Part shown: positions 16,076 through 53,446 of the stretch, in pieces
How positions within the stretch are numbered: position 1 is the stretch's first letter
Layout of the letters: each line of letters starts with the position of its first letter
Assembly (NCBI GenBank): GCA_018823175.1
Contig: JAHJIY010000004.1
Coordinates: 1,963 to 65,962 of the forward strand
Direction of reading: 5' to 3'
Length of the DNA: 64,000 nt
Source of the DNA: Pseudomonadota bacterium
GTDB taxonomy: Bacteria; Desulfobacterota; Desulfobulbia; Desulfobulbales; JAHJIY01
Translations under genes and position numbers: made by a program
Notes under the pieces: generated by a model
Told to the model about the DNA's origin: nothing
Database searches by the model: none
Seen by the model: only the letters and a program-made list of their open reading frames with translations

Positions 16076-16348
16076 AGAAGGTTGGAGGTTGGAGGTTGAA
16101 GGTTTAAGGTTTAAGGTTGAAGGCTGGAGGTTGGAGGCTGGAGGTTGAAGGTTGGAGGCTGGAGGCTGGAGGCTGAAGGCTGGAGGCTGGAGGCTGGAGG
16201 CTGGAGGTTGAAGGCTGGAGGCTGGAGGTTGGAGGTTGAAGGCTGGAGGTTGGAGGTTGAAGGTTGAAGGCTGGAGGCTGGAGGTTGGAGGTTGGAGGCT
16301 GGAGGCTGGAGGCTGGAGGCTGGAGGTTGAAGGCTGGAGGCTGGAGGT
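16076..16348 (+). repeat. Heptanucleotide tandem array of 39 units of T[GT][GA]AGG[TC] in perfect 7-nt register
   Basis: The array starts on the nucleotide after the TAG stop at 16073-16075. I checked unit boundaries at 16083, 16139, 16202, 16265 and 16321 and all are in phase. 27 of the 39 units are TGGAGG[TC], which contains the GGAGG Shine-Dalgarno core. Confidence 0.95.
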
Positions 16349-17685: not shown

Positions 17686-17853
17686 ATTAGGTTGAAGGTT
17701 GAAGGTATAAGGCTTAAGTTATAAGACTGAAGATAAAGGTAGATTTTTTTTAATTTCCTTCAGCCTTCTACCTTCAACCTTCAACCTTCAACCTTCAACC
17801 TTCAACCTTCAACCTTCTACCTTCAACCTTCAACCTTCTACCTTCAACCTCCA
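17686..17853. repeat. Inverted heptad repeat: a degenerate (TGAAGGT)n left arm and an (ACCTTCA)14 right arm
   Basis: The left arm runs 17686-17740 (ATTAGGT TGAAGGT TGAAGGT ATAAGGC TTAAGTT ...). The right arm runs 17756-17853, with 14 phased units ending in ACCTCCA. Nucleotides 17690-17713 (GGTTGAAGGTTGAAGGTATAAGGC) are complementary to 17763-17786 at 23 of 24 positions. Confidence 0.9.
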
Positions 17854-49188: not shown

Positions 49189-50961
49189 TTGCAGACCAAA
49201 TCCCCGGTGATCATTATCGGCGGCGGTCCGGCCGGACTGGCCGCAGCCCATCAATGCTTGAGTCTTAAAATGCAGCCCATTGTTTTCGAGATGAATAATC
49301 TGGTCGGCGGCATCTCACGGACCGAGGTCTACAAAGATTATCTTTTTGATATCGGTGGCCATCGTTTCTTTACCCGGATGGAAAACATTGACCGACTCTG
49401 GCAAGAGATGATGGGCGACGATTTCCTGACCGTCTCCCGCCGATCACGGATCTTTTATCAGGGCCGCCTTTACGACTACCCCCTGAAAGCGACAAATGCC
49501 CTTCTCAATCTCGGCATTATTGAGAGCCTGCTGATCATAGCCAGCTATCTGAAGGCGCAAGTCTGCCCCCTGACCCCGGAGGCAAACTTTGAACAATGGG
49601 TGGCCAACCGTTTCGGCTGGCGACTGTACCGGACTTTCTTCAAGACCTATACCGAAAAAGTCTGGGGCATGCCGTGCGATCAGATCCAGGCCGCCTGGGC
49701 CGCGCAACGGATCAAGGGGCTGTCGTTAAAGTCAGCGGTAATCAATGCAATGTTCGGCGGCGGCACCGCCAAAAGCCTGATCGACAGTTTCAAATATCCG
49801 CGGAAAGGGCCGGGCATGATGTGGGAGAGGTTCAAGGACCATATCGAACACAATAACGGCAGTGTCCTGTTGAACAGCAAAACGGAAAGTTTGCGCCATG
49901 AAAACGGCCGAATAATTGCCATGACTTACCGGGACACCGCCGATGAATTGCACACAATGCCGGTGGAACAGATGATTTCCAGCATTCCGGTCAGCAGACT
50001 GATCAAGCTGCTCGATCCCGCCCCACCCGCAGAGGTATTGGCCGCAGCCGACACCTTATCGTACCGTTCATTTCTGATCGTCGGACTGATCATCAACAAG
50101 AAGGGATTATTCCCTGATCAGTGGCTCTACATCCACAGCCCCGAGGTCAAGGTGGGCCGGATTCAGAATTTCGGGAACTGGAGTGCGGCCATGGTACCGG
50201 ACCCCGATAAAAGCAGCATCGGCATGGAATATTTCTGTACGATCGGCGATACGCTCTGGCAGACCGCCGATGCCGATCTGATTAAGATGGCCTCGGCCGA
50301 ACTGACTAAACTTGGCCTGCTTGACCAGGCCGAAATTATCGACGGCACCGTGATCAGACAGCCGCTAGCCTACCCGGTATATGACGCCGGCTATAACAAA
50401 AATCTGTTAATAATCAGGGAGTTTCTCGCCACGATCGGCAATCTGCAAACCATCGGCCGCAACGGGATGCATCGTTACAACAACATGGACCATTCGATGC
50501 AAACCGGCATCATGGCCGCCAAGAATGTTAACGGCGCCCAATATAACCTTTGGACAATCAATGAGGAAGATTCCTATCTGGAAGCGGAAACTCCGACCCT
50601 GGCCAAATCAACCCTGGTCACCAAACTACTGAGCAGATCATTTGCCCGAATGGACGAAGTCGCCTTTGCCACGGCGACCGGCACCCTGGCCGGTCTGGTT
50701 TTATTCCTGGCCACCATCTGGCTGCTCATCCGGGGGGGAGATAATGTCGGCCAGCACCTGAAACTAATCGGCCAATACTTTATCGGTTACAGCGTGACCA
50801 TGGAAGGAGCCTTTATCGCCCTGGCCTATGCCTTTTTTTCCGGATTTCTTTTTGGCTGGTCGCTGGCTTATCTGCGAAATCTCTTTCTGACTCTCTACCT
50901 CTATCAGATCAAGAAGAAAAATGAGATGATGAGCCTGAAAGACCTGATGGACCAATTGTAG
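49189..50961 (+). CDS. FAD/NAD(P)-binding oxidoreductase (amine-oxidase / UDP-galactopyranose-mutase-like fold) with a C-terminal 2-TM domain
   Basis: The ORF starts at a TTG. VIIIGGGPAGLAAAH is the dinucleotide-binding GxGxxG motif. Also present are VGGISRT, FDIGGHRFF and GRNGMHRYNNMDHSM. The C-terminal 90 aa or so are hydrophobic (LAGLVLFLATIWLLIRGGDNVGQHLKLIGQYFIGY...). Confidence 0.75.
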   Translation: MQTKSPVIIIGGGPAGLAAAHQCLSLKMQPIVFEMNNLVGGISRTEVYKDYLFDIGGHRFFTRMENIDRLWQEMMGDDFLTVSRRSRIFYQGRLYDYPLKATNALLNLGIIESLLIIASYLKAQVCPLTPEANFEQWVANRFGWRLYRTFFKTYTEKVWGMPCDQIQAAWAAQRIKGLSLKSAVINAMFGGGTAKSLIDSFKYPRKGPGMMWERFKDHIEHNNGSVLLNSKTESLRHENGRIIAMTYRDTADELHTMPVEQMISSIPVSRLIKLLDPAPPAEVLAAADTLSYRSFLIVGLIINKKGLFPDQWLYIHSPEVKVGRIQNFGNWSAAMVPDPDKSSIGMEYFCTIGDTLWQTADADLIKMASAELTKLGLLDQAEIIDGTVIRQPLAYPVYDAGYNKNLLIIREFLATIGNLQTIGRNGMHRYNNMDHSMQTGIMAAKNVNGAQYNLWTINEEDSYLEAETPTLAKSTLVTKLLSRSFARMDEVAFATATGTLAGLVLFLATIWLLIRGGDNVGQHLKLIGQYFIGYSVTMEGAFIALAYAFFSGFLFGWSLAYLRNLFLTLYLYQIKKKNEMMSLKDLMDQL

Positions 50962-50965
50962 ATAT

Positions 50966-51266
50966 TTTAGGTTGAAGGTTGAAGGTTGAAGGTTGAAGGT
51001 TGAAGGTGGAAGGTTGAAGGTGGAAGGTGGAAGGTGGAAGGTGGAAGGTTGAAGGTTGGAGGTTGAAGGTTGAAGGTGGAAGGTGGAAGGCGGAAGGTTG
51101 AAGGTTGGAGGCTGGAGGCTGAAGATTGGAGGCTGAAGGTTGGAGGCTGAAGGTGGAAGGTTGGAGGCTGAAAGTGGAAGGTTGGAGGCTGAAGGTTGGA
51201 GGCTGAAGGTTGGAGGCTGAAGGTTGGAGGCTGAAGGTTGGAGGCTGAAGGTTGAAGGTGGAAGTG
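50966..51266 (+). repeat. Heptanucleotide tandem array of 43 units ([TG]G[AG]AGG[TCG] type) in perfect 7-nt register
   Basis: The array starts 5 nt after the TAG stop at 50959-50961. I checked phase at 50973, 51001, 51127, 51246 and 51253. Units include TGAAGGT, GGAAGGT, TGGAGGC and TGGAGGT, so it belongs to the same family as 16076-16348. Confidence 0.95.
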
Positions 51267-51295
51267 ATAATAGATACTGCCAAAACTAAACTCCG

Positions 51296-51628
51296 GTGAA
51301 TGAGATGGACGAAATTGAAAAGCATGAAATTATAACCCCAAATGAGGAGAAGCTGTTTAGCGGTTTGCTCCTCTTAAACGCCAAGGCGCTCGGCATCGTC
51401 CTTGGCCTGCTTTGCGGCTTGGGGCTGTTTGTCGCCACCAACTGGCTGGTGATCAAGGGGGGGCCAAAAGTCGGCCAGAACCTGCAGCTGCTCAGCCAAT
51501 ATTTTATTGGCTACCGGGTCAGTTTTATCGGCAGTATCATTGGCTTTTTTTACGGTTTTGCGGTGGGCACGATCAGCGGATCCTTTCTCGGCTGGCTCTA
51601 CAACAAAATATCGTTGCTGAGAGAATGA
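51296..51628 (+). CDS. Small 2-TM membrane protein, paralog of the C-terminal domain of the upstream FAD oxidoreductase
   Basis: 110-aa ORF starting at GTG 51296 or ATG 51305. LFVATNWLVIKGGPKVGQNLQLLSQYFIGYRVSF aligns with LFLATIWLLIRGGDNVGQHLKLIGQYFIGYSVTM, encoded at about 50650-50920. Confidence 0.6.
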   Translation: MNEMDEIEKHEIITPNEEKLFSGLLLLNAKALGIVLGLLCGLGLFVATNWLVIKGGPKVGQNLQLLSQYFIGYRVSFIGSIIGFFYGFAVGTISGSFLGWLYNKISLLRE

Positions 51629-53348: not shown

Positions 53349-53446
53349 AGTGACTAGTAACGAGTAAATAGTAACGAGTAAATATCAACGTGTTCCCCAC
53401 TCGTCACTCGTCACTCGTCACTTGTCACTTGTCACTTGTCACTTTG
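53349..53446. repeat. Palindromic heptad element: an AGTGACT AGTAACG AGTAAAT AGTAACG AGTAAAT arm facing a (CACTCGT)3(CACTTGT)3 arm, 14 units in phase
   Basis: The left arm starts at 53349 and the right arm at 53398, an offset of 49 nt (7 x 7). The arms are approximate reverse complements (AGTGAC / GTCACT). TAAATAGTAAC lies at 53365-53375. Confidence 0.9.

Follow-up and report, generated by a model that had tools for sequence, protein, structure and literature searches.

A 43-unit heptanucleotide array in the spacer between an oxidoreductase gene and a small membrane protein gene of a metagenome-assembled Desulfobulbales genome

The array at 50966-51266 of the analysed window, a stretch of 64,000 nucleotides, is a new and unusually long member of the already described class of heptanucleotide simple sequence repeats (SSRs). 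It is probably a lineage-specific microsatellite that was born by slippage, that is tolerated where it does the least harm, and that is carried as a co-transcribed linker between two genes. This reading draws on the observed anatomy of the array, its absence in relatives, its genome-wide family, and the statistics of its placement. Apart from its unusual length, the array taken alone is an ordinary representative of a repeat class known since 1990-2015. The placement rule that it follows is equal for units unable to form G-quadruplexes (G4) and, for the TGAAGGT unit, is found across phyla, which argues against the published explanation based on G4.

Anatomy of the array

Read directly on the plus strand, the array comprises 43 in-phase heptads (301 nt) with the consensus KGRAGGY. 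TGAAGGT accounts for 18 of the units, TGGAGGC for 10 and GGAAGGT for 9, and the remaining six are single variants. Tandem Repeats Finder (TRF) calls the tract at 50969-51264 with a period of 7, 42.3 copies, and a score of 347. When the window was searched for three tandem KGRAGGY units with at most one mismatch, 85 matches were obtained, every one within three arrays of the KGRAGGY family, and none of 100 shuffles gave a match. The features of the array and its immediate surroundings are listed below.

50962..50965, plus strand: four unique bases, ATAT, between the TAG stop and the first, degenerate heptad (direct reading)
50966..51266, plus strand: heptanucleotide array of 43 KGRAGGY units (direct reading, TRF, motif search, composition)
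50973..51105, plus strand: 5' block of TGAAGGT and GGAAGGT with simple 7-nt periodicity (unit string abbbbbcbccccbdbbcecb; period-7 identity 0.90)
51106..51259, plus strand: 3' block, a 14-nt higher-order repeat of TGGAGGC TGAAGGT (period-14 identity 0.86 versus period-7 identity 0.69)
51267..51304, plus strand: retained unique spacer with the stops TGA TAA TAG and a Shine-Dalgarno (SD)-like GGTGA (direct reading)
50909..51325, minus strand: spurious open reading frame (ORF) of 138 aa, without a family match and of compositional cause

The composition of the array is strongly skewed, with 49% G, 25% A, 22% T, and 3.7% C, so that purines make up 74%. Its plus strand contains 21 stop codons, distributed over all three frames, and its minus strand contains one. 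The 138-aa minus-strand ORF owes its existence solely to the near-absence of stop codons from the pyrimidine-rich strand of the array; with no family match and a compositional origin, it was ruled out as coding. The 3' end of the array is straddled by the tandem in-frame stops TGA TAA TAG at 51265-51273.

Phased reading and TRF both bear out the long array of 43 units and 301 bp that had been described in a sequence-only reading of this DNA. In that reading, the array was said to start 5 nt after the stop codon; the gap to the TAG (50959-50961) is in fact 4 nt, and the figure of 5 is true only in the sense that the array begins at the fifth base. The distance of about 30 nt to the next ORF stands, since the array ends 29 nt before a GTG at 51296 and 38 nt before an ATG at 51305. 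The reported bias of unit types was likewise recovered, with TGAAGGT and GGAAGGT in the 5' half and the 14-nt repeat of TGGAGGC and TGAAGGT in the 3' half. The idea of locally homogenised blocks agrees with an identity of 0.90 at lag 7 in the 5' half and of 0.86 at lag 14 in the 3' half.

Flanking genes and spacer signals

The array lies between two genes of the same strand.

49189..50961, plus strand: FAD-dependent oxidoreductase of 590 aa, PRK07208 group (Pfam Amino_oxidase and NAD_binding_8; NCBIfam NF005548, 651 bits)
51305..51628, plus strand: small membrane protein of 107 aa from the ATG (110 aa from the GTG at 51296), a paralogue of the oxidoreductase tail

The oxidoreductase carries a C-terminal membrane tail of two helices (residues ~489-566) and terminates at the TAG at 50959-50961. 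Alignment with the homologues extends to their very last residue, which shows that the C-terminus of the enzyme is not truncated. By BLASTP, the 107-aa protein is 49% identical to the oxidoreductase tail over 59 aa (E=2e-15), and its earlier description as a free-standing copy of the membrane domain of the enzyme is well founded. The public annotation (GCA_018812655.1, JAHJDI010000045.1) uses the ATG at 51305, which gives the 107-aa product. Both proteins show some similarity to the NCBIfam model holin_4, at 32.8 bits for the enzyme tail (50653-50880) and 46.7 bits for the 107-aa protein (51374-51604), which in both cases is below the cut-off of 70. The pair is preceded on the same strand by a B12-radical-SAM gene and a GT2 glycosyltransferase gene, and is followed by an SNF-family symporter gene and an AsmA/YhdP-like gene.

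The SD-like GGTGA of the retained spacer is at 51295-51299, 5 nt before the ATG at 51305, and a similar AGGTGA precedes the ATG in one relative (L003). Neither a sigma-70-like promoter nor a site resembling an intrinsic terminator was found in the spacer. A search of the spacer against Rfam gave no credible family, the sole match being a chance one (E=0.23). In structure prediction, the RNA of 50940-51330 folds worse than its own shuffles (z=+2.16), and its centroid is fully unpaired. The 3' tail of the 16S rRNA, which would hold the anti-SD of the organism itself, is absent from the metagenome-assembled genome (MAG).

The gene pair in relatives

The two-gene arrangement is widespread. In two relatives of the same order (G021 and G006), the pair is kept with spacers of 68 and 26 nt, respectively, and without an array. 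Homologues of the small protein, with 48-75% identity, follow the enzyme gene in ~65 loci. In ~55 of the 63 metagenome loci where both genes could be located (~90%), the spacer is 5-37 nt long and contains no array. The pair is conserved on many metagenome contigs from sediment and groundwater. In the metagenome scan, no contig was closer than 61% identity, and the genomes that were compared contain no close relative. Exact matches to the 590-, 110-, and 107-aa products were confined to the source assembly, GCA_018812655.1.

Judged from these loci, the arrangement of an enzyme gene followed by the gene of a small paralogue is ancestral. The array had been thought to split the enzyme from its domain. 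That claim fails, given the ancestral two-gene layout, the short spacers in ~60 homologous loci, and the complete C-terminus of the enzyme: because the pair is ancestral and had a short spacer, the array split no gene. The downstream ORF is intact and equal in length to its homologues. This speaks against silencing of the small protein gene by the array, barring an expansion of very recent date.

At least three other lineages, with 52-58% protein identity, have different heptamer-type repeats at the same oxidoreductase/small-protein junction, in each case starting a few bases after the stop.

L199:2981-3096: TGGATGC, ~5 copies
L162:2402-2686 and L167:3341-3564: opposed heptamer arms GGTTTAC and ATACCKC
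L176:4764-5117 and L179:4385-4737: opposed heptamer arms GYGTGAG and CTCCTCA

The insertions in L162, L167, L176, and L179 are 220-350 nt long and are bounded by the opposed arms. The independent gain of different heptamer repeats in at least three other lineages suggests that this junction accepts such insertions repeatedly.

Heptad arrays in the genome and in other genomes

The MAG comprises 4.1 Mb in 111 contigs with a GC content of 48.7%, and yields 255 TRF rows. The modal tandem-repeat period is 7 (61 rows), and its multiples 14, 21, and 28 are also enriched. Merging of the period-7 rows leaves 60 heptad arrays, which belong to several unit families and, by the crude gene calls described below, are nearly all intergenic. 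The GGTTGAA/KGRAGGY family (AACCTTC/GGTTGAA) is represented by 17 arrays that total 2.0 kb; the other unit families include AGTGAAT, AGTGAC(R), TAGTAAA, AGGTTTA, AAGGTAG, and GGAAGGT, among others. The longest heptad array of the genome, at C26:124635-124968, measures 334 bp (24 copies of GGAAGGT and 18 of AGAAGGT) and starts 6 nt after a stop codon.

A sister array at 16076-16348 of the window had been assigned to the same repeat family, strand, and stop-proximal placement as 50966-51266, and this kinship is supported. The sister array consists mainly of TGGAGGT, TGGAGGC, and TGAAGGC, and its order of units is unlike that of 50966-51266. With the sister array and with three other long members of the family, 50966-51266 has no more than 25-37 nt of continuous sequence in common, which is fewer than six units. 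The proposal of active spread is not sustained by these comparisons: as unit orders differ and shared strings are short, each array appears to have been homogenised in place, with no copying of blocks from site to site. Block transposition of arrays was ruled out on the same strings of 25-37 nt.

The motif is far more abundant in this genome than in the rest of its order. Four tandem TGRAGGY units were searched with at most two mismatches in 201 genomes of the order, with the reversed sequence as the control. The genome itself has 221 overlapping matches, versus at most 32 in each of the 200 others, and matches are present in 41 of the 201 genomes (this one and 40 of the 200 others). The reversed control gave 11 matches in the genome itself and was rare in the rest of the order. 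Beyond the order, an exact (TGAAGGT)4 was found more than 120 times among species representatives from many phyla, with carriers that include Moorena, Roseiflexus, Oscillochloris, Anaerolineae, Planctomycetaceae, Verrucomicrobiota, Bacteroidota, and Acidobacteriota. The 120 TGAAGGT arrays that were sampled from other genomes span 28-168 bp. The present genome is thus an extreme carrier and a possible model for the class of heptad repeats.

Placement and polarity of the arrays

The genes of the MAG were called by a crude procedure based on codon usage, which gave 3,284 genes and 85% coding. The junctions with arrays are co-directional in 33 cases, convergent in 10, and divergent in 4, where 34.9, 6.2, and 5.9 would be expected from the number of junctions. 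Divergent regions are depleted of arrays only when weighted by length (p=0.027). The recurrence of long arrays inside operons had been taken as a sign of function or spread; since the three junction types carry arrays roughly in proportion to their number, it is not special.

What does distinguish the arrays is their polarity. The purine-rich strand has an ORF closer to its 5' end than to its 3' end in 38 of 47 arrays (p=2.5e-5), with median distances of 11 versus 120 nt. The rule is followed by 19 of the 24 arrays with GG-containing units and by 19 of the 23 with GG-free units. Two classes of array can be distinguished. The post-stop class, purine-rich on the sense strand, has 27 members including 50966-51266, and these start between -6 and +34 nt from the upstream stop. 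All 27 are placed in this way when two genes missed by the gene caller are counted, since both apparent exceptions then obey the rule. The pre-start class, pyrimidine-rich on the sense strand, has 20 members, and most of these end 4-33 nt before a start codon, which is ATG in all cases. Examples are as follows.

C99:6657-6759, C96:48464-48511, C84:29215-29242, C55:37376-37443, and C59:123640-123742: pre-start arrays, pyrimidine-rich on the sense strand
17757-17850 of the window: pre-start array, pyrimidine-rich on the sense strand

Several pre-start arrays leave no room for an SD sequence. The N-termini that were inspected behind them look native, for example, those of FlhA, a TlyA-like methyltransferase, and an ABC permease; a GT2 gene is also among the genes concerned. 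Post-stop arrays are longer than pre-start arrays (median 83 versus 48.5 bp, p=0.007). The five that exceed 200 bp all belong to the post-stop, purine-sense class. At co-directional junctions, the two orientations are about equally frequent, with 16 pyrimidine-sense and 17 purine-sense arrays.

The same polarity is found at TGAAGGT loci of other phyla, in 53 of 78 arrays (p=0.002), on ORF calls that are cruder still. Where these loci have an upstream ORF on the same strand, its stop is located -24 to +50 nt from the start of the array in 35 of 56 cases, and in 13 of those 35 the stop is the TGA of the array itself.

Two accounts of how arrays come to lie where they do were rejected. Seeding by the stop codon, in which a native stop would be in heptad register with the TGA of the unit, gave 3 of 15 positive offsets in phase, where ~2 are expected by chance. 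Decayed old units do not account for the long spacers on the 3' side, as in-phase similarity to the unit fades within two to three units.

Four single spacers contain a pair of opposed arrays (C80:71242-71627, C96:32441-32677, C32:23768-24166, and C37:10085-10232). A purine-rich array follows the stop of one gene and its complement is located beside the neighbouring gene, and pairing between the two arms could give rise to imperfect hairpins of great length. Two of the cases are convergent, and in these both arms are purine-sense relative to the gene that they adjoin.

Comparison with known repeats

The closest published parallel in placement is that of the GGGAATC repeats of Xanthomonas and the GGGGAYT repeats of Nostoc. 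Sense-strand copies are found within 50 bp of a stop codon, and antisense copies no more than 50 bp upstream of an ORF; of the two neighbouring ORFs, the 5' one is nearly always the nearer, few of the repeats are located between divergent genes, and most are transcribed (Rehm et al. 2015, PMC4692102). G4 formation was shown for both units, and the placement was discussed in terms of G4 (Rehm et al. 2015, PMC4692102). The rule in the present genome is identical, including the location inside operons, and 50966-51266 follows it at 4 nt after a stop on the sense strand. The differences concern the unit and the length. The G4 heptamers have a run of three to four G per unit, whereas 50966-51266 contains no GGG, and its GG runs would form a two-tetrad G4 at best. 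A typical Xanthomonas array has ~4 units, compared with 43 here. In addition, the rule in the present genome covers GG-free units, so G4 is not required.

A second parallel is the TAACTGA direct repeat of marine Beggiatoaceae, Cyanobacteria, and Bacteroidetes, with arrays of up to 43 copies. Many of these are located just upstream of start codons without an SD, and translational regulation through S1, Csp, or CsrA-like proteins was proposed (MacGregor 2015, PMC4679880). The likeness lies in intergenic heptamers that contain stop codons and occur genome-wide, in the patchy spread across phyla, in copy numbers that reach 43 in some species, and in the pre-start arrays of the present genome, which are also directly upstream of SD-less starts. 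In contrast to the TAACTGA arrays, which are immediately pre-start and overlap the ribosome-binding site, 50966-51266 has the unit KGRAGGY, is located after a stop, and ends 38 nt before the ATG with the SD-like GGTGA retained. In Geobacter metallireducens, four copies of GGACCGG at 49 sites and five copies of MTYCTGA were annotated as putative regulatory elements (Aklujkar et al. 2009, PMC2700814). These are also multicopy tandem heptamers, but their copy number is short and fixed (4-5), the units are different, and some are inside genes.

As cited in PMC4692102 and PMC4679880, Mrazek et al. 2007 found heptanucleotide SSRs to be generally over-represented in prokaryotes. The long SSRs (LSSRs) of this class, in the terms of those citations, are uninterrupted head-to-tail arrays of 5-11-nt, modally 7-nt, units that are intergenic, numerous within a genome, of lineage-specific abundance, and without an assigned function. 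The 43 phased heptads of 50966-51266, with their TRF score of 347, have this form, and the array is one of many related ones (60 of period 7 in the genome, 17 of them in the AACCTTC/GGTTGAA family). At 43 units, it is far longer than most. A search of the accessible literature for the sequence of the unit, either as KGRAGGY or as the string TGAAGGTTGAAGGT, yielded no paper.

Phase-variable contingency SSRs include, for example, the heptanucleotide SSRs in Haemophilus hmw promoters. With these, 50966-51266 has in common a slippage-prone tract, the length of which could modulate expression. It differs in that it is located neither in a reading frame nor in a promoter or between promoter elements, but between a stop and the SD of the next gene, and in that the flanking genes are housekeeping-type envelope/lipid genes rather than surface antigens. 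In sponge RNAs of the CsrA type, the GGA motifs are displayed in hairpin loops, and each RNA is the product of a gene of its own that has a promoter and a terminator. The array does contain 22 GGA motifs, but its predicted fold is unpaired, and neither a promoter, a terminator, nor an Rfam match was found for a sponge of the CsrB/RsmZ type. Nor is it a palindrome of the REP/BIME type, as it has no self-complementarity and its RNA has the positive z-score and the unpaired centroid given above.

Origin and possible function

The most likely origin of the array, to judge from its anatomy, is slippage. Growth would have begun in the first few bases after the oxidoreductase stop, within an ancestral intercistronic spacer of ~25-30 nt, and would have continued at the same site, first 7 nt and later 14 nt at a time, through replication slippage or unequal exchange. 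The array would be co-transcribed with the operon as a 301-nt linker that is purine-rich, almost C-free, stop-rich, and free of predicted Watson-Crick structure. The spacer would thereby have lengthened from ~30 to 343 nt. Coupling between termination and reinitiation needs very short distances (PMC10666635), and such coupling, if any existed here, was probably lost. Neither the SD-like GGTGA nor the ATG has been altered, so translation of the small membrane protein probably continues, with ribosomes initiating independently at its own SD. The effect of the array on the operon is likely to be near-neutral or mildly modulatory.

The position of the array can be understood as one that selection would tolerate. 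Because it has stops in all frames, a purine-rich sense strand could abut or even overlap the end of a gene without extending the protein, so the upstream ORF would be protected while the downstream ribosome-binding site stays clear. A purine-rich sense array flush with a stop codon would accordingly mark a placement that is tolerated, and is not proof of a dedicated function. Some observations fit less easily with tolerance. The rule is tight and symmetrical, with its counterpart in pyrimidine-sense arrays 4-33 nt before an ATG, often without an SD, and passive tolerance does not obviously explain this. That all five arrays of more than 200 bp are post-stop and purine-sense is a further point against it. 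The recurrence of TGAAGGT in many phyla, together with the large excess of TGRAGGY over its reversed control in the order, hints at a selection or mechanism specific to the motif.

A first alternative is that the array is a functional RNA element in a 7-nt register. It would serve as a single-stranded platform, rich in SD-like and GGA motifs, for standby of the 30S subunit or ribosome or for the translation of mini-ORFs, or would bind CsrA, S1, Csp, or a TRAP-like oligomer, and its length would tune the ratio of the enzyme to its small partner. This is a minority view that deserves some weight but is on balance unlikely. Consistent with it, the array contains 11 GGAGG, 28 GAAGG, and 22 GGA motifs in an RNA that is predicted to be unstructured. 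Ten of the GGAGG motifs within 51058-51300 are followed after 6-7 nt by TTG or GTG, with mini-ORFs of 5-26 codons (e.g., MEAEGWRLKVGG), and CsrA is encoded in the genome. Placement is tight and orientation-specific both in the genome and across phyla, and at several genes a pre-start array stands in for the SD, in line with the proposal of MacGregor for TAACTGA. On the other hand, the placement rule also holds for the GG-free AGTGAAT and AGTGACG, which contain neither an SD nor a GGA motif. TGAAGGT arrays are found in Bacteroidota too, and Bacteroidota make little use of SD sequences. The features of a sponge RNA, namely GGA in hairpin loops and a promoter and terminator of its own, are not seen at 50966-51266, and ~90% of the homologous operons manage without an array, on a spacer of 5-37 nt.

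It is tempting to speculate on a more general role. Heptamer arrays might form a cross-phylum class of polar intergenic modules. The post-stop, purine-sense arrays would be structure-free insulators of tunable length that reset the traffic of ribosomes and Rho between cistrons, and the pre-start, pyrimidine-sense arrays would be SD-independent leaders, with the ribosome or a conserved single-strand-binding factor as the reader of both. Two findings point in this direction: the purine-rich strand runs outward from the ORF boundary independently of G4 potential, and TGAAGGT recurs in Cyanobacteria, Chloroflexota, Planctomycetota, Verrucomicrobiota, Bacteroidota, and Desulfobacterota-like MAGs. 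This reading is improbable as it stands, and is kept open because the symmetry of placement and the recurrence of the unit across phyla are not fully explained by passive tolerance. If a factor does read the arrays, they would represent a widespread and overlooked layer of operon control.

It is also conceivable, but decidedly doubtful, that the array acts at the level of DNA or transcription. The G-rich non-template strand might form two-tetrad G4 or stabilise R-loops, or a C-poor transcript might deny loading to Rho, so that the array would be a polar pause, an insulator, or an anti-polarity spacer at the end of a gene. The array has 14 non-overlapping (GG N1-7)x4 motifs and a C content of only 3.7%, and Rho is present in the genome. 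That the purine-rich strand points away from the adjacent ORF, whatever the orientation of that ORF, suggests a strand-polar process of DNA or transcription, and G4 are formed by GGGAATC and GGGGAYT, which have the same placement rule (Rehm et al., PMC4692102). However, no GGG run occurs in the array, and the GG-free families obey the rule (19 of 23), so G4 is not the common denominator. Avoidance of Rho loading, in turn, leaves the orientation unexplained, since C-rich, G-free, pyrimidine-sense arrays are as frequent between co-directional genes as purine-sense ones (16 versus 17).

An assembly artefact of the short-read metagenome bin, in copy number or in the array as a whole, is very improbable: the MAG is in 111 contigs, tandem repeats are prone to collapse or expansion in assembly, and the same proteins were not met on any other, independent contig, but ~60 such arrays occur in the genome in consistent contexts, isolate genomes of other phyla carry arrays of the TGAAGGT unit, and unit variants make all k-mers of 65 nt or more unique within 50866-51366. 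With such k-mers, the copy number could be resolved by ordinary short reads and the units placed by a short-read assembler; the longest perfectly periodic stretch of the array is 78 nt (51177-51254).

Against these alternatives, the tolerated linker of slippage origin is the preferred reading for 50966-51266. Nearby in the window, a second composite heptad element is found at 53349-53446, between the SNF symporter gene and the AsmA-like gene, with TAGTAAC/GAGTAAA units followed by three copies of CACTCGT and three of CACTTGT. The longest-ORF start of the AsmA-like gene, at 53390, runs through this element, while the start in the public annotation is at ~53516.
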